From positions 67 through 64,066 of the forward strand of contig CAKSLR010000001.1 of the NCBI GenBank assembly GCA_934467435.1: a stretch of DNA of 64,000 nt, written 5' to 3'. This DNA comes from an uncultured Eubacteriales bacterium. GTDB taxonomy: Bacteria; Bacillota; Clostridia; Oscillospirales; CAG-272. Below, in pieces: positions 1,201-33,652 of this stretch. Made by a program: the position numbers and the translations under genes. The notes below the pieces were generated by a model, which saw only the letters and a program-made list of their open reading frames with translations, was not told the DNA's origin and searched no databases. Each line of letters starts with the position of its first letter. Positions within the stretch are counted from its first letter, which is position 1.

Positions 1201-1277
1201 CGGGGTGTGGCACAGCTTGGTAGTGCGCTTGGTTCGGGACCAAGAGGTCGCAAGTTCGAATCTTGTCACTCCGACCA
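1201..1277 (+). tRNA. tRNA-Pro (anticodon CGG)
   Basis: Cloverleaf read by hand. Acceptor CGGGGTG/CACTCCG, D-arm GCAC..GTGC, anticodon stem CTTGG/CCAAG with loop TTCGGGA, T-arm with TTCGAAT, and encoded CCA. Confidence 0.9.
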
Positions 1278-16826: not shown

Positions 16827-16903
16827 GGAGGCATAGCTCAGTTGGTTAGAGTACTTGCTTGACATGCAAGGGGTCACTGGTTCGAGTCCAGTTGTCTCCA
16901 CCA
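16827..16903 (+). tRNA. tRNA-Val (anticodon GAC)
   Basis: Acceptor GGAGGCA/TGTCTCC, D-loop AGCTCAGTTGGTTAGAGT, anticodon stem CTTGC/GCAAG with loop TTGACAT, T-loop GGTTCGAGTCC, and encoded CCA. Confidence 0.9.
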
Positions 16904-22700: not shown

Positions 22701-23110
22701 GGGGTCAGGGTCATGGCGGAAAGTTCCCCCATTGCCGCCGCCATATTCCGCACATAACCGAGGTCGATTTTGCCGGCATTCCCCTCGCTTTGCTTTTCGT
22801 GCAGCAGGGGCAGCAGTTCCCCGACCGCGCGCCACATGACCAGGGCGCGGGCGGGGGCATCGGCATAGCGGTAAGAAAGCCCGCCCACCTGCCGGAACAC
22901 CGTATTGGCGAGGCGGGTGAAATTGGTGACTTCAAAATACAGGGGGGCGGCGGGCGGCAGGACATCCGCCATTGCCTGTTCGGAAAGCACCGTTTGCTGC
23001 TCCGGCACCAGCAGCACGGCGCGACGGCACGCCGCCACGTCCGCGCGGATGCGGTCGGCAAGGCGGGTGGTCTTTCCGCTGCCGAAATCCCCGGTCAGCA
23101 GTTCGATCAT
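19790..23110 (-). CDS. addB: ATP-dependent helicase/nuclease subunit B (AddB/RexB)
   Basis: Start MIELLTGDFGSGKTT (Walker A) at 23110 after GGAGGAGG. C-terminal nuclease/Fe-S region GRIDRVD...VVDYKSG and CETCEMQSVC. The ORF-track N-terminal extension to 23440 is rejected. Confidence 0.85.
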   Translation of the reverse strand: MIELLTGDFGSGKTTRLADRIRADVAACRRAVLLVPEQQTVLSEQAMADVLPPAAPLYFEVTNFTRLANTVFRQVGGLSYRYADAPARALVMWRAVGELLPLLHEKQSEGNAGKIDLGYVRNMAAAMGELSAMTLTPAKLEAAAKKLEEGNRLREKLEDLSLLGAMYHGLLRETYNDVGEDLDRLADLLSGKDLFAGTAVYVDGFISFTEQEWRVLAALAQKTDLTLTLTLPDGQEEASPMLEVADTARRLSRLAEKAGVPFRRTSCGAGRRGTPLVRALAPLLFGTGQPEGGARLAAEDSLRVVACENAYASAAWIACDIARRVTEEGAHYRDFAVICRRAESYVGVLDTALEDAEIPCFMAKHTDITSYRAVKLILTAYAVCTGPYRQRDVLSYLKCGMSGVAENDADMFELYVTRWKIDGARFTDPDGWNMNPDGYTDQWTARGREIVSTVERVRQHLVAQLSPLAASCRCCPVPEHCRALYDFLLSLSVEEQLRAEAANARAAGLRAEAEEIGRLFGVILSALDTLCDTLAGVSVDADAFVDLFRLLLSQVTLSRIPTSQDEVTVGSADLLRLGNAKHVYLLGVNDGEFPASVTEEGVFSDRDRRVLEEIGLSIRPDLLRRCAREWFCFTRAFCAAKESVTLLYATASPTGAPLEAAAPLSRILALTDTRVMEDRDAPRLSHLWRRRPAAEYLALYRGTPEGEALRRVLASDADGGRACAALATPVSDPVCRLLPDTAAMLFGKVIPLTQSRMDSYVKCPFSYFCRYQLRLDPNREIEFDYADVGNLLHTVLERFFGRLEKEGRQIRDLSREEIPPIVEEILSDYIREICPKKEQRTPRLLHLLTTLRRSAALVLSELYAEFSQSDFVPRFFEMGIGEEGEDAPGTLPFVLPGGTRILLRGRIDRVDTWKNGDKTYLRVVDYKSGAKQFSLDDIERGLNTQLLVYLFSLWKSENPSFCRSLAGEGGELLPAGVLYTGARAADVTEDRPIGREEAFDEAAKKIPRSGLLLRDETVLRAMEKTLAGRYIPVEVKKDGTFKKNSEPSLASLAEMGQLVHRLEEVICRIGGELAGGVADARPATIGKVRACETCEMQSVCRATLHP

Positions 23111-23676
23111 ACGTCCTCCTCCCGCAGGGCGTAGCCCCTGCCGCGCACTGCCACAATCCGCCGTCTGCCGTCCCCTTCTACTTTCCGACGCAGGCTGTGC
23201 AGGGTAACGGCAAGAATCCCGGGATCCACCGTCCCGGCGCACGTTCCCCAGCCTGCCGCAAGCAAATCTTCCCGCGCGACGGCACCGCCGTGCGCCGCCC
23301 ACAGGGCGGAAAAGAGGGCGTATTCCTTTTCGCTGAGGGGAATCTGCCTGCCGCCGAGCAGGGCGGCGCGGGCGGTGGGGTCGGGGCGCAGCCCCCGCTG
23401 CCCCTCCCCGCCGCGTACGGCAACGAGCAGCGAGCGGCAAAGCAGTGGGCGGTGCAGCGTGCTTCCGGTGTCGGAAAGCGCCCTGCCGTAGGCAATCCGC
23501 CGCCCCGCGAAGGATGGCGGCGGGAACGCATCGGCATCATACAGGCAGACATCCGCCGGGGGCAGATCGTCCGGCGATGCCGCCACGCAAACGGAAAAAC
23601 CTGCATCCTCCAGCCACAGGGTCAGCAACCGGGCGCAGGCAGGCTCCCGCGATAAAACGCAAATGCGGTCCGTCAT
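23107..23676 (-). CDS. OmpR/PhoB-type winged-helix DNA-binding protein with short, degenerate receiver-like N-terminus
   Basis: C-terminal LSEKEYALFSALW...VAREDLL...VTLHSLRRKVE...IVAVRGRGYAL is the trans_reg_C pattern. The N-terminal region of about 60 aa lacks the acidic pocket (VLSRE instead of DD/DE). ATGA overlap with addB. Confidence 0.65.
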   Translation of the reverse strand: MTDRICVLSREPACARLLTLWLEDAGFSVCVAASPDDLPPADVCLYDADAFPPPSFAGRRIAYGRALSDTGSTLHRPLLCRSLLVAVRGGEGQRGLRPDPTARAALLGGRQIPLSEKEYALFSALWAAHGGAVAREDLLAAGWGTCAGTVDPGILAVTLHSLRRKVEGDGRRRIVAVRGRGYALREEDV

Positions 23677-30092: not shown

Positions 30093-30534
30093 ACGTACTC
30101 CAATAGGAAATAAGATCGGAAAGGGGGTCAACCCCGAAAAAGACCAGAAGCAGGTTGCGTACCACAAAGAAGGAAAGCAGCAGCACGGCATAGCCGATTG
30201 CCACGCGGGGAGAGGGTGCGCCCCCCCGCCGGACGGCAAGAAGGAAGGAAACCTGATAATACCCGAGCGAGAAAATGCCGCAGAGTACGCCGGGGTTGGC
30301 GGCAAGGGAGGAAAGGATATCCCCCCGCCAAAGAAACTCCAGCGCCCGCGTTGCCCCGCAGCCGGGGCAATAGAGGTGCGCCATGCGGGAAAAAGCGCAG
30401 AAAAACGGAACGCCGCGCGCCCGGAGGTAAAGATAAAGAAGCACCCCAACCCCGCAAAGCAGCACGCCGCCGTCAAAGAAAAGGAGGTGCCGCCACGCCG
30501 CGCGGCGCGGCGCGGCATATTTTGTTGCCATCAT
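30085..30534 (-). CDS. DUF2752-family membrane protein
   Basis: CPGCGATRA motif followed by hydrophobic helices. ATG at 30534 or 30531 after GGGAGGA. 8-nt overlap with radC. Confidence 0.7.
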   Translation of the reverse strand: MMATKYAAPRRAAWRHLLFFDGGVLLCGVGVLLYLYLRARGVPFFCAFSRMAHLYCPGCGATRALEFLWRGDILSSLAANPGVLCGIFSLGYYQVSFLLAVRRGGAPSPRVAIGYAVLLLSFFVVRNLLLVFFGVDPLSDLISYWSTYG

Positions 30535-30609
30535 CCTGTCCTCCCGCAAGAAATCCCCTGCATACGACCGAAACCAACTGTTTTTTCAAGAAGCAAAACC
30601 ACCGGTAAT

Positions 30610-30690
30610 GGCATTTTTGCGAGGCCGTCCATACCGCAGCCGTGCACCGCACGGAAAGGGCGCCAGCCCGTGCGGTTTGCCATGCAAACC
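30610..30690 (-). repeat. Copy A of the 81-nt conserved leader/operator element
   Basis: 79/81 identical to 30751-30831. Contains GGTTTGC-cat-GCAAACC and the CCGTGC / GCACGG / CCGTGCGG alternative-pairing triplet. Confidence 0.85.
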
Positions 30691-30750
30691 TGCTCTGCCG
30701 CATTCCGGTGTTGCGGGATTCTACCACGAGCAAAAATGCTTGCTTGCAAG

Positions 30751-30831
30751 GGCATTTTTGCGAGGCCGTCAATACCGCAGCCGTGCACAGCACGGAAAGG
30801 GCGCCAGCCCGTGCGGTTTGCCATGCAAACC
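30751..30831 (-). repeat. Copy B of the 81-nt conserved leader/operator element
   Basis: Direct repeat of copy A with a 141-nt period. It starts about 5 nt downstream of the predicted minus-strand transcription start. Confidence 0.85.
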
Positions 30832-30842
30832 GCCCTGCGGTT

Positions 30843-30871
30843 ATTATACCACAAAACCGCTTTCTTGTAAA
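30843..30871 (-). promoter_or_regulatory. Consensus promoter reading into repeat copy B and the DUF2752-radC-uvrBA-addB gene string
   Basis: On the minus strand: TTTACA (30871-30866), 17-nt spacer, TGg-TATAAT (30848-30843). A degenerate duplicate (TGg-TAGAAT, 30723-30718) precedes copy A. Confidence 0.6.
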
Positions 30872-30955
30872 CCGCCAACCCCCATCCCGCCGCAAAAAAA
30901 CGTAAAATTTCGTTCCCCCCAAACGTAAAATTTTATTCCGCTTTTTTCCATATGC

Positions 30956-30984
30956 TTGACAGAACGAAGAAAATGTGGTAGCAT
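30956..30984 (+). promoter_or_regulatory. Promoter of the P-type ATPase gene
   Basis: TTGACA (30956-30961), 17-nt spacer, TGg-TAGCAT (30979-30984). Confidence 0.55.
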
Positions 30985-31015
30985 GATAAGGATGAACCGA
31001 AGAAAGGAAACGGAT

Positions 31016-33652
31016 ATGGAGAAAAAAGCCTATCTGACCGAAAAAGAAGAAGTACTCTCCGCTGTCGCCACCGACGGGCATGCGGGGCTTTCCGCCGCCG
31101 AGGCGAAAACGCGGGGCGAGACGTATGGAAAAAACAAACTGACCGAGGGCAAACGCACCTCGCTTTTTGCGCGGATTCTTGCGCAGATCGCCGACCCCAT
31201 GGTGCTGGTGCTGATCGGCGCGGCGGTCATTTCCGCCGTTACCTCCGCCCTGCAGGGGGAATCATTTGCCGATGTGTTCATCATCCTTGCGGTGGTGGTC
31301 ATCAACACGGCACTCGGCGTCTTGCAGGAAAGCAAAGCGGAAAAAGCAATTGATGCGCTGAAAGCCATGTCGGCGGCGAACTCGAAGGTCGTGCGCGACG
31401 GGCAGCTGCAACTGGTGCCGAGCGAAGAACTGGTGCCGGGCGACATTGTGGTGCTGGAGGCGGGCGATGCCGTACCTGCGGACGGACGGTGGATCGAAAC
31501 GGCAAGCCTCTCGGTGGAAGAGGCGGCGCTGACGGGCGAATCGCTGCCCGCCGAAAAAACCGATGCCGCCCTTGCCCCCGCCGAGGGGGGCGATGTGCCG
31601 CTCGGCGACCGCCGCAACATGGGATATATGGGCAGCGCCGTGGTCTACGGGCGCGGCAGAATGGTGGTGACCGCCACCGGTATGAAGACCGAAATGGGCA
31701 AGATTGCCACCGCGATTTCGGATGCCGCCGACGGCGAGACCCCCTTGCAGAAGAAACTGAACCAGTTAAGTAAAATTCTGACCTTTGCCGTGCTCGGCAT
31801 CTGTGTTTTCATGTTCGCCTTTGCCCTGCTGCGGGGCGGGCAGTTTGATGCCGGAACCATTCTCTCCACCTTCATGCTGGCGGTGAGCCTTGCCGTTGCC
31901 GCCATTCCCGAGGGGCTTTCGGCGGTGGTGACCATTGTGCTTTCGATGGGGGTTACCAAAATGTCGGCGCAGAAGGCGATCATCCGCCGTCTGACGGCGG
32001 TGGAGACGCTCGGCTGCACGCAGATCATCTGCTCCGACAAGACCGGCACGCTGACGCAGAACAAAATGACCGTGGTGGAACACACGGGAGAGGACGAACA
32101 CCTGCTCGGGCGCGGCATGGCGCTCTGCTCGGATGCCGAGTGGCGCGCGGAGGGAGCCATCGGCGAACCGACCGAGTGCGCCCTGGTCAACTACGCGGCA
32201 TCCATCGGCGAACGGAAAGACCTCCTGGTAAAAGAGGCGCCGCGCGTAGGGGAGGCGCCCTTTGACTCCCTGCGCAAGATGATGAGCACCCTGCACCGCA
32301 CGGACGGCAGAATCGTGCAGTTTACGAAAGGGGCGCCGGACGAGATTCTCCGCCGCGCCGACACGATTTGGGAAGGCGGCAGAATCGTACCGCTGACCGA
32401 AGAACGGCGGAACGCCGTTCTCAAGCAGAACACCGCTTACGCCTCCCGCGCGCTGCGGGTGCTTGCCCTGGCGCAGCGGACGTATGACACGATGCCGACC
32501 GACCTTTCGCCTGCGGCGCTGGAAGAACACCTGACCTTTATCGGCATGGTGGGCATGATTGACCCCGTGCGCCCCGAGGTACAGGCGGCGGTTGCCGAAT
32601 GTATGGCGGCGGGCATCCGCCCCGTGATGATTACGGGCGACCACAAGGATACCGCCGTTGCCATCGGCAAGACCCTCGGCATTCTTTCGGACGCGGGCGG
32701 CGCGATTACCGGGGCGGAACTGGATCGCCTCAGCGACGAGGAGTTTGACCGCGTGGTAGACCGGTATTCGGTTTACGCGCGGGTGCAGCCCGAGCACAAG
32801 GTGCGCATTGTCCGCGCCTGGCAGGCACGCGGGTGCGTGGTTGCCATGACGGGGGACGGCGTGAACGACTCCCCTGCCATCAAGAACGCGGATATCGGCA
32901 TCGGCATGGGCATTACCGGCACCGATGTGACGAAAAACGTTGCCGACATGATTCTTGCCGACGATAACTTTGCCACCATCGTCAGTGCTGTGGCGGAAGG
33001 GCGCCGCATTTACGACAACATCTGCAAGTGTATGCAGTTTCTGCTTGCCTCCAACCTGAGCGAGGTCATCAGCATTTTTGTTGCCACCCTGCTCGGCTTT
33101 ACCATTCTGCGGGCGCCGCACATTCTGTTTATCAATATGCTGACCGATTCCCTGCCCGCCCTTGCCCTCGGTGCGGAGAAGGCAGAGCCGGACGTGATGC
33201 AGCGCAAGCCCCGCCGCAGCGACGAGGGGATTTTTGCGGGAGGCATGGGCTTTCACATCGCGGCGGAGGGGATTCTCATTTCGCTCATCACGCTGGCTGC
33301 CTATTTTGTCGGGCATTTCCTGGAGAGCGGAAGGTGGGAGATCACCGAAAGCCCGGACGGCGTGACGATGGCGTTTCTTGCCCTCTCGATGGCGGAGATT
33401 TTCCACGCCTACAATATGCGTTCGCGCCATTCGCTCTTCCGGCTGCGCACGCACAACCCGCTGCTGCTGGTAACCATGCTTGCCGCCCTTGCCCTGACCA
33501 CGGCGGTGATCTACATTCCCGCCCTCTCCGCGCTCTTCGGCTTCACCGCCATCCGCGCGAAGGAATATTTCACGGCGCTGGCGCTTGCCTTCCTGATTGT
33601 GCCGCTCGTGGAACTCTATAAGTTTCTCTCAAGCCGCAAAAAGAAGGCGTAA
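31016..33652 (+). CDS. Cation-translocating P-type ATPase (type II, Ca2+-ATPase-like)
   Basis: Start MEKKAYLTEKEEVL. ICSDKTGTLTQNKM phosphorylation site, MITGDHKDTA and TGDGVNDSPAIKNADIGIGMG. Confidence 0.9.
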   Translation: MEKKAYLTEKEEVLSAVATDGHAGLSAAEAKTRGETYGKNKLTEGKRTSLFARILAQIADPMVLVLIGAAVISAVTSALQGESFADVFIILAVVVINTALGVLQESKAEKAIDALKAMSAANSKVVRDGQLQLVPSEELVPGDIVVLEAGDAVPADGRWIETASLSVEEAALTGESLPAEKTDAALAPAEGGDVPLGDRRNMGYMGSAVVYGRGRMVVTATGMKTEMGKIATAISDAADGETPLQKKLNQLSKILTFAVLGICVFMFAFALLRGGQFDAGTILSTFMLAVSLAVAAIPEGLSAVVTIVLSMGVTKMSAQKAIIRRLTAVETLGCTQIICSDKTGTLTQNKMTVVEHTGEDEHLLGRGMALCSDAEWRAEGAIGEPTECALVNYAASIGERKDLLVKEAPRVGEAPFDSLRKMMSTLHRTDGRIVQFTKGAPDEILRRADTIWEGGRIVPLTEERRNAVLKQNTAYASRALRVLALAQRTYDTMPTDLSPAALEEHLTFIGMVGMIDPVRPEVQAAVAECMAAGIRPVMITGDHKDTAVAIGKTLGILSDAGGAITGAELDRLSDEEFDRVVDRYSVYARVQPEHKVRIVRAWQARGCVVAMTGDGVNDSPAIKNADIGIGMGITGTDVTKNVADMILADDNFATIVSAVAEGRRIYDNICKCMQFLLASNLSEVISIFVATLLGFTILRAPHILFINMLTDSLPALALGAEKAEPDVMQRKPRRSDEGIFAGGMGFHIAAEGILISLITLAAYFVGHFLESGRWEITESPDGVTMAFLALSMAEIFHAYNMRSRHSLFRLRTHNPLLLVTMLAALALTTAVIYIPALSALFGFTAIRAKEYFTALALAFLIVPLVELYKFLSSRKKKA

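Follow-up and report, generated by a model that had tools for sequence, protein, structure and literature searches.

The window analysed here is a stretch of 64,000 nucleotides (nt) from an uncultured Eubacteriales bacterium (contig CAKSLR010000001.1, positions 67 to 64,066), and all the results described below are computational. On its minus strand lies a string of genes encoding, in order, a DUF2752 protein, RadC, a metallophosphoesterase (Metallophos), UvrB, UvrA, a winged helix-turn-helix (wHTH) protein with a Trans_reg_C domain, and AddB. On the plus strand, divergent from the element discussed here, lies a P-type cation ATPase gene with its own promoter, TTGACA-17-TAGCAT. The wHTH protein gene (23107-23676, minus) is found between uvrA and addB and overlaps a long open reading frame (ORF) containing addB; its product of 189 amino acids has a C-terminal OmpR-type wHTH as its sole domain, without a receiver domain. 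An original prediction, made from the letters alone, had named the DUF2752-radC-uvrBA-addB string with the divergent ATPase gene and had described, between them, a tandemly duplicated promoter with a leader module; both descriptions are correct. We consider it highly probable that positions 30580-30871 (minus) are a two-copy head-to-tail array belonging to a family of promoter-carrying structured intergenic repeats, which is restricted to a set of gut Clostridia and is apparently uncatalogued. The features of the array and its surroundings are as follows, where P1 denotes the closing stem and P2, P3 and P4 the three hairpins of a cloverleaf.

30866-30871, minus: -35 hexamer TTTACA of the first, full promoter of the array (11 of 12 consensus positions, 17-nt spacer)
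30843-30851, minus: extended -10 box TGGTATAAT, which marks the left edge of each module throughout the family
30818-30847, plus: predicted antisense promoter-like site TTGCCA-18-TATTAT (10 of 12)
30774-30841, minus: cloverleaf core of module B, from the minimum free energy (MFE) fold and family covariation; P1 30835-30841 with 30774-30780, P2 30813-30833, P3 30799-30810, P4 30781-30795
30762-30773, minus: conserved linker ATTGACGGCCTC, with GACGG invariant in alignment A5 and forming part of the nhmmer block
30730-30761, minus: A-tract/U-tract hairpin GCAAAAATGCC-CTTG-CAAG-CAAG-GCATTTTTGC, terminator-like and symmetric on both strands
30718-30726, minus: second, weakened -10 copy TGGTAGAAT, with no usable -35
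30705-30717, minus: most of a 15-nt insertion that is specific to the species and separates the second -10 copy from P1 of module A (alignment A3)
30631-30704, minus: cloverleaf core of module A (covariance model, 75.6 bits); P1 30695-30704 with 30631-30639 (one G.G mismatch), P2 core 30674-30690, P3 30658-30669, P4 30640-30654
30593-30632, minus: linker ATGGACGGCCTC and degenerate terminal hairpin GCAAAAATGCC..GGTGGTTTTGC (weak block match at 30587-30634)
30581-30592, minus: TTCTTGAAAAAA, the decayed remnant of a third -10 copy
30532-30545, minus: ribosome-binding site (RBS) GGGAGGA and ATG of the DUF2752 gene, the first gene of the operon

The two copies form a direct repeat of 84 nt (30607-30690 and 30748-30831) which is 96% identical with a start-to-start distance of 141 nt; the pair of near-identical 81-nt copies reported at the outset is its core, 97.5% identical and with the same period. 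The minus-strand promoter, TTTACA-17-TGgTATAAT at 30871-30843, was likewise borne out, with 11 of the 12 consensus positions plus the TG, and the array region holds three promoter-like sites against 0.6 expected from shuffles. The transcription start derived from a 7-nt rule is predicted at A30836, the A of a conserved C-A-G. The cloverleaf of module B has an MFE of -42 kcal/mol (z = -4.7). The A/U hairpin proposed for unit B, GCAAAAATGC...GCATTTTTGC, is present at 30730-30761, and its version in unit A (30593-30620) is degenerate. Alignment of both periods revealed that the whole second period of 141 nt is a diverged copy of promoter plus unit. The 57-nt spacer is the degenerate promoter that had been suspected before unit A, with CTTGCA in place of the -35, then 4 inserted nt, TGGTAGAAT in place of the -10 (30726-30718) and the 15-nt insertion; the register of the latter is ambiguous, perhaps reaching 1-2 nt into the P1 arm, and it is present in all multi-copy strains. 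The divergence is uneven: 10 mismatches over 40 positions, with 20 gap columns, were counted in the promoter/spacer, but 4 mismatches over 86 positions, without any gap, in the unit (Fisher p = 0.0015). The palindrome GGTTTGC-N3-GCAAACC, recognized earlier, occurs exactly twice in the 64 kb (0.24 expected), and the covariance model described below finds exactly two matches in the window (140 and 76 bits). The antisense site is built from the apex of P2 and the near-palindromic -10 box. As the apex, TTGC..GCAA, is conserved across the family, most modules carry such a promoter-like arrangement pointing upstream. Many arrays of the family sit in divergent intergenic regions. In the window, two direct 19-mers, AAACGTAAAATTTCGTTCC (30898-30916, plus) and AAACGTAAAATTTTATTCC (30921-30939, plus), are spaced by 23 nt between the divergent ATPase promoter and the array promoter and are polymorphic among strains; they may be transcription-factor sites, e.g., for the OmpR-type wHTH protein of the operon.

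Spurious ORFs are called across the array in other strains of the species, with 84 amino acids in L001 (9750-10004) and 162 in L096 (1016-1504). A protein search with the 162-residue translation gave 14 proteins that are internally repetitive and devoid of domains. Translated back into DNA, the block that recurs in them, IDGLAKMPLQASIFASWYN, reads ATTGACGGCCTCGCAAAAATGCC-CTTGCAAGCAAGCATTTTTGC-T(T)CGTGGTATAAT. An exhaustive HMMER search with a spurious array ORF returned just 37 representatives among 1.84 billion proteins. Such spurious repetitive proteins (P0059-P0072 and P0110-P0138, motif MPLQASIFASWYN) are handy probes, but they pollute public protein databases. Arrays of the same architecture were found at unrelated sites, namely from a PrmA-like gene to queA (L098), after rny (L099) and before a recD2/yrrC-type helicase gene (L116). 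The family pattern CATTTTNGCTTCGTGGTATAAT matched 16 metagenome contigs, of which 14 are clear members and two (L101 and L110) look like chance matches, and had no match in viral contigs. Beyond the window locus the family comprises about 17 metagenomic loci (L098, L099, 14 from the metagenome scan, and L116). L101 (1633-1654) and L110 (3398-3419) share a 22-mer, CATTTTTGCTTCGTGGTATAAT, which is located upstream of htpG in an organism with a GC content of about 40%, with a different hairpin, TTTTTGTCACC...GGTGACAAAAA, before it and no cloverleaf; either the match is due to chance or the 22-mer is distantly related to the conserved block in a reduced form.

The searched plasmid and phage collections gave no match to the element. 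Exact-core, window-specific DNA patterns had 0 matches in genome, metagenome and viral contig collections, which do not contain the species. In the 845 kb of DNA searched, the conserved block is confined to arrays, at a density of one array per 10-64 kb contig, and the covariance model matches nothing in 592 kb of DNA taken from 80 further species of Clostridia and Lachnospiraceae. The 57-nt block of linker, hairpin and -10 box is 83-96% identical to the window copy across host contigs of 42-62% GC, which implies horizontal spread or very strong sequence constraint. The genes downstream of the arrays are unrelated, encoding OmpR-type response regulators, class A penicillin-binding proteins (PBPs), an SbcD-like phosphoesterase, PduL, QueA, RecD2, a WG-repeat protein and unknowns, and no co-oriented gene follows the arrays of L104 and L108. 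Genes for a transposase, integrase, RAYT or reverse transcriptase (RT) were not found near any array (Pfam gene calls, with inspection of the ORFs of L107, L111 and L113). In the case of the window locus itself, the identity of DUF2752 homologues falls from 99% straight to about 50%, and the species is not among the species-representative genomes searched. In the closest relatives (L004, L005 and L009), the DUF2752 gene lies about 35 nt behind a TGnTATAAT promoter with a short, unstructured leader, and the element was found neither by blastn/nhmmer nor by the covariance model in 80 related DUF2752 loci from species-representative genomes. As the nearest relatives have no structured leader, the element is lineage-specific at the DUF2752-radC-uvrBA-addB locus.

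Comparison of the modules across the family gives a common architecture. A module starts with TGGTATAAT, followed after 0-3 nt by the 5′ strand of P1, by P2 (8-10 bp, loop of 3-6 nt, apex TTGC..GCAA), by P3 (3-8 bp, core GGC..GCC) and by P4 (5-9 bp, loop of 3-5 nt). The 3′ strand of P1 comes next, then (A)TTGACGG(C/T)(C/T)TCGC with the linker ATTGACGGCCTCGC, and the module ends with an A-tract, hairpin, U-tract and TTCG before the next TGGTATAAT. A proper -35 (TTTACA, TTGAAA, TTGAAT, TTGATT or TCGACA) usually accompanies first modules at a spacing of 16-17 nt, and the final -10 box often stands directly before a short untranslated region, RBS and ATG. In other arrays the last module is cut at an arbitrary point, i.e., after the 5′ strand of P1, after P2, after the 3′ strand of P1, in the middle of P3, or halfway through the hairpin, which is the case for the species of the window; truncated terminal modules often keep P2 at the predicted 5′ end of the mRNA (L102, L107, L109 and L115). 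Internal copies of the -10 box retain TGGTATAAT, while gene-proximal copies are often weakened (TTTAAT, TTAAAT, TAGAAT), which is expected if promoter strength is under selection. The weaker boxes TGGTTAAAT, TGGTTTAAT and TGGTAGAAT were located at the -10 nearest the gene or nearest a degenerate last module (L098, 10545-10553; L099, 10244-10252; L105, 583-591; window, 30718-30726). Modules 2 and 3 of L116 (250-430), which repeat at about 96 nt, lack the A/U hairpin (...TTGAGGTCACCG-TGGTATAAT), and this makes the hairpin block an optional component of the module. The modules are also mosaic, as module 4 of L098 and module 2 of L105 share the 5′ strand of P1, P2 and P3 and do not share P4. Within an array, differing modules stand in a single orientation, always beginning at a -10 box and ending at arbitrary points.

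The stems vary in sequence yet stay paired, while the linker/hairpin/-10 block keeps its sequence. When folded individually and alignment-free, 21 of 26 cores adopt the closed P1 with three hairpins at the MFE, with z-scores from -3 to -7.5. The strict architecture was obtained for 15 of 21 non-redundant native cores (71%) compared with 34 of 3150 dinucleotide shuffles (1.1%). A covariance model was then built from alignment A5 with an explicit structure, and 31 matches were realigned. In this alignment, 93.2% of the cells are standard pairs, against 77.3% after shuffling and 32-56% with the partners slid, and double-sided changes are found in 28 of 39 pairs; the covariation score of 0.341 (0.120 for shuffles) was attained by 0 of 500 shuffles. 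Such an alignment is fitted to its model, but the alignment-free folding agrees with it. P1 shows double-sided changes at all seven pairs, including bases upstream of the predicted start, and the A/U hairpin covaries by A-U/G-C, C-G/U-A and U-A/G-C exchanges. With MAFFT and RNAalifold on whole modules, P4 and the A/U hairpin alone were recovered, because the variable stems misalign.

Strain loci were retrieved by exact look-up of the DUF2752 protein and its cluster variants, and the copy numbers are those of short-read assemblies. One copy was found in L001, L002, L084, L085, L089, L090, L093, L094, L095 and L097, two in the window and L088, three in L096, at least three in L087 and at least five in L086, the last two being lower bounds because runs of N (scaffold gaps; L086, 1542-1642; L087, 1632-1731) lie inside the arrays. 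The internal spacer is nearly identical across all multi-copy strains, and in single-copy strains the terminal -10 is lost and the hairpin is degenerate. Single-nucleotide polymorphisms (SNPs) within the species fall in loops and junctions or keep the pairing. One P1 pair is C-G in most strains, A-U in L084/L085 with both sides changed, and U.G in L095/L097; in L093/L094 a C-to-U change in the terminal hairpin gives G.U. All three non-compensated stem SNPs within the species yield G.U on the minus-strand RNA.

The period of 141 nt is also the largest MEGAHIT k-mer, and the gaps of L086 and L087 lie within arrays, so one might take the duplication in the window for an assembly artefact. We find this scarcely credible. 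The 57-nt spacer is real sequence that is missing from single-copy strains, independent assemblies produced by different assemblers (window, L088, L096, L086 and L087) contain it in identical form, SNPs distinguish the two units, and the periods of other family arrays are 96-136 nt. The agreement with the k-mer length is taken as a coincidence, as the spacer was found by different assemblers and the other arrays differ in period.

The original prediction took the unit for an attenuator or riboswitch, or else for a repressor operator, with the palindrome as the candidate site of a LexA-like repressor or of the wHTH protein, and in either case as dedicated to the DNA-repair operon. Given the family distribution and the variable stems this is not supported, and we judge it very improbable. 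The palindrome does lie at +6 to +22 of a strong promoter, but it is the cloverleaf hairpin P2, in which 3-5 pair types occur per position across modules and the apex alone is conserved; as the sequence of the P2 stem varies, the palindrome is not the operator of one repressor. The comparison of relatives that had been suggested gave covariation for the stems and, outside the apex, no conservation for the sequence of the palindrome. The absence of a LexA box, noted from the start, was confirmed, as no GAAC-N4-GTTC with at most one mismatch occurs in 30535-31016; in the whole window 19 LexA-type sites were counted at this stringency against 25.7 expected. A resemblance to the radC motif had been raised with Rfam as its check, and no Rfam family matches 30400-31100 at E≤10 beyond two chance matches. 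At gathering thresholds, Rfam cmscan of the whole window returned just the two tRNA genes at 1201-1274 (plus) and 16827-16900 (plus), and nothing was found at the arrays of 13 other family loci.

The folding arguments for a regulatory switch fared no better. Unit A does have a near-isoenergetic alternative fold, but this fold is not conserved and hangs on one polymorphic loop base, and the mutually exclusive pairing proposed for each copy is not a feature of the family: when the 3′ arm of P4 is kept unpaired, 14 of 15 modules lose 6-13 kcal/mol and no consistent alternative partner emerges, by which an attenuator is ruled out. A riboswitch is ruled out by the short (0-5 nt), variable junctions and by the unrelated downstream genes. 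At the family level the element is a repeat of unrelated intergenic regions, with response regulators, PBPs, PduL, QueA, RecD2 and SbcD-like proteins encoded downstream, and it is missing from the relatives of the operon. DNA-repair-type genes follow three of about 14 family loci, namely radC-uvrBA-addB in the window, an SbcD-like gene (L105, from 625) and a RecD2/YrrC helicase gene (L116, 721-2943), which would favour a repair-specific element; this count is post hoc and at best weakly significant.

Several other classes were rejected. A MITE (miniature inverted-repeat transposable element) does not fit, as the module ends carry no inverted repeats, no consistent duplication flanks P1, and the inner rather than the outer part of P1 is conserved. 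In a CRISPR array the spacers would not be conserved cloverleaf folds recurring between loci; moreover, the 57-nt repeat block carries a -10 box and the flanks contain no cas genes. Against a tRNA or tRNA-like element, the loops are of 3-6 nt and the Rfam tRNA model matches just the two real tRNAs of the window and one in L098. A type III toxin-antitoxin system (ToxI-like) was dismissed, as the genes downstream are those for DUF2752, QueA, response regulators, PBPs and others. An RNA of the reverse strand has no usable promoter upstream of the cloverleaf, and the antisense site is directed away from the cloverleaf into the terminator-like hairpin. A cruciform-dependent promoter would have its TTGACG 44 nt from the TATAAT and, after extrusion, a spacer of 12 nt instead of 17. 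A small peptide from the ATG in AAAATG (frame MPLQASIFASWYN) has no RBS, and the conservation pattern is that of base-pairing.

The account we prefer, tentatively and with somewhat less than even confidence, is that the module is a portable cassette of promoter, structured leader and leaky terminator which supplies the promoter of the operon. The activity of the promoter, its start site, termination, stabilisation and the influence of copy number are here read from the sequence. RNA polymerase would use the extended -10 TGGTATAAT, together with the -35 in the first module, and would start at the conserved C-A-G about 7 nt downstream of the -10 (A30836 in the window). The 11/12 match of the first module in the window and the -35 at 16-17 nt in first modules elsewhere are consistent with promoter function. 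The RNA would open with the three very stable, short-looped hairpins P2-P4, and P2, about 3 nt from the 5′ end, would have the geometry of a 5′ stabiliser or insulator. In Firmicutes, 5′-terminal stem-loops stabilise mRNAs. The A-tract/hairpin/U-tract would act as a leaky, bidirectional terminator, and in canonical members the next -10 box immediately after the hairpin would drive the next module or the downstream gene. In the window, the DUF2752-radC-uvrBA-addB mRNA would come mainly from the first promoter and read through about 300 nt of structured leader, because the second -10 is weakened (TAGAAT, no -35) and the third is decayed. The number of modules, from one to at least five among strains, would tune the output of the operon, and the element would have no role in sensing DNA damage.

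Several observations weigh against the promoter-leader-terminator cassette. First, P1 covaries, within the species too (L084/L085), although its 5′ strand occupies about -5 to +2 of the promoter belonging to the module itself; this strand begins 0-3 nt after TATAAT, and the ATT after the 3′ strand of P1 can pair with the AAT of the -10. Because of this overlap P1 cannot form in the module's own transcript, and on the predicted start it can form just in DNA or in read-through RNA from an upstream promoter. Second, the G.U pairs by whose asymmetry the strand might be assigned are rare and equally frequent on both strands (12 vs 16 of 529 pairs), which is atypical of evolved RNA; their scarcity and symmetry fit a DNA-level constraint or templated quasi-palindrome correction at least as well as RNA. 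Third, the A/U hairpin is not a canonical intrinsic terminator, as its U-run is inside the stem and it was not flagged by the scan, and it is wholly missing from some modules (L116 modules 2 and 3). Fourth, the identity of the 57-nt block at non-homologous loci of such different GC content exceeds the needs of a promoter plus a terminator.

These observations bring in the explanation that the module is primarily a DNA-level cassette, folding as single-stranded DNA and moved or duplicated by structure-specific recombination or transposition. It would insert next to, or carry, a TATAAT box, and promoter activity would be a by-product which the host tolerates or exploits; IS200/IS605-derived PATE/REP elements, integron attC sites or a small-circle intermediate are possible analogies. 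We regard it as rather unlikely, though the overlap of P1, the G.U symmetry, the mosaicism of the modules, a left boundary that is fixed and right ends that vary make it a serious rival. P1 takes in bases upstream of the predicted start and even pairs into the AAT of the -10, the stems are almost purely Watson-Crick on both strands, the block is conserved at non-homologous loci, the arrays mix modules in one orientation from a fixed left boundary at the -10, the hairpin block is optional, and copy number changes fast within the species. No gene of a mobility enzyme (transposase, integrase, RAYT or RT) was found near any array in the Pfam gene calls and inspected ORFs, however, and there are neither target-site duplications nor terminal inverted repeats, the inner rather than the outer P1 being conserved. 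The stem sequences vary freely, unlike ends recognised by a single transposase. The density is low, with one array per contig and none in the 592 kb of other Clostridia, and plasmids, phages and viral contigs gave no matches. In an IS200/IS605-type test, TATAAT forms the left flank in every case, the right end has a 3′ subterminal hairpin at a distance of 13 nt, and no TnpA/RAYT is encoded in the flanks examined. Between the window and L098-L116, the 57-nt block is shared at ≥80% identity over ≥50 nt before non-homologous genes, in the manner of putative mobile promoters, a definition which was applied within genomes (PMC3575422) and which here holds across metagenomic contigs.

The P1 overlap may also be taken at face value. 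The modules would then be minimal self-transcribing cloverleaf cassettes that take their closing stem from -5..+2 of their own promoter and fold in single-stranded DNA or read-through RNA, never in their own transcript. We consider this unlikely. The fold would be recognised by a putative structure-specific machinery of recombination or copying, through which cassettes at promoters are added, removed and shuffled; alternatively, it would be a device that tells self-initiated from read-through transcripts.

Multi-copy small RNA (sRNA) loci exist, and each module might be the gene of a trans-acting sRNA of about 115 nt, with three 5′ hairpins, about 20 nt of single strand (the 3′ strand of P1 and AUUGACGGCCUC) and a terminator hairpin, resembling the LhrC1-5 or Qrr loci; the position before genes would be incidental. 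Every module has its own -10 box and terminator-like hairpin, the single-stranded linker is conserved and contains CCUC (anti-Shine-Dalgarno-like), and the two arrays without a following co-oriented gene (L104 and L108) are of the kind expected. We nevertheless find this distinctly doubtful, since the last -10 copy is placed as the promoter of the next gene in most loci, arrays end in truncated modules that are unable to make the sRNA, and the RNA of single-copy strains runs on into the operon because the terminal -10 is lost and the hairpin is degenerate. The P1 overlap with the promoter is equally unexplained by an sRNA gene, and no target complementarity was found.

Among known systems, the nearest analogues are the pneumococcal BOX elements, the promoter-carrying repeats such as Correia elements and the putative mobile promoters also being close. 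In the case of BOX (boxA-boxB(n)-boxC) of Streptococcus pneumoniae, spurious ORFs are called over long arrays (PMC3049150). Both BOX and the present family are modular structured intergenic repeats with one module tandemly copy-variable, fold independently of the flanks, are co-transcribed with neighbouring genes (predicted so for the family), and give rise to spurious ORF calls. There is no sequence similarity between them. BOX elements number more than 100 per genome, dispersed, in either orientation and often between convergent genes, whereas the arrays of the family appear to be few and nearly always precede a gene of the same orientation; the family has a consensus -10 box in every module, and its variable part is a covarying four-way junction and not a conserved boxB.

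Correia elements, ERIC and REPIN have been named among the repeats that carry promoters, and putative mobile promoters have been described as a concept (PMC3575422, PMC3049150). The Correia elements of Neisseria (CREE/NEMIS) and the family are alike as small non-coding repeats with stable RNA folds that bring promoters to unrelated genes. As MITEs, Correia elements have terminal inverted repeats of 26 bp and duplicate a TA target; the family has neither such repeats nor a target-site duplication, forms head-to-tail arrays and varies in the sequence of its stems. REP/BIME/REPIN and the IS200/IS605-derived PATEs resemble it as mosaic clusters of short, near-perfect palindromes in intergenic DNA and in structure-based recognition in single-stranded form. 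In the family, by contrast, no RAYT or TnpA was seen, the copy number per genome appears low, and the palindromes have a fixed order, are closed by a stem and are tied to a promoter box.

Listeria LhrC1-5 and tandem riboswitches consist, like the family, of head-to-tail units each with promoter-like and terminator-like signals. Tandem sRNA genes and riboswitches conserve sequence in seeds and ligand pockets, but the family conserves only the shape of the 5′ domain; its closing stem overlaps the promoter and its arrays end truncated and feed diverse genes. ToxI repeats share with it the order of promoter, tandem direct repeats, terminator-like hairpin and downstream gene. They are of about 36 nt, mutually identical and always before a ToxN-type toxin gene, whereas the family has a period of 96-141 nt, a -10 box per unit and unrelated downstream genes. 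In the literature searched, of which the coverage is incomplete, the combination of head-to-tail arrays, a -10 box at the boundary, a covarying junction that overlaps the promoter and a conserved linker/hairpin block appears undescribed.

Taken together, these results remove a tempting mis-annotation, as there is no novel DNA-damage riboswitch or operator before uvrBA. They define a structured, promoter-bearing repeat family that is absent from Rfam 15, has strong covariation support and comes with a covariance model usable on complete genomes. The covarying stem that overlaps the discriminator and the start site is not explained by standard models. For the organism, an uncultured gut bacterium, the presence of one to at least five modules upstream of an excision and recombination repair operon is a plausible natural polymorphism that would tune the expression of that operon.

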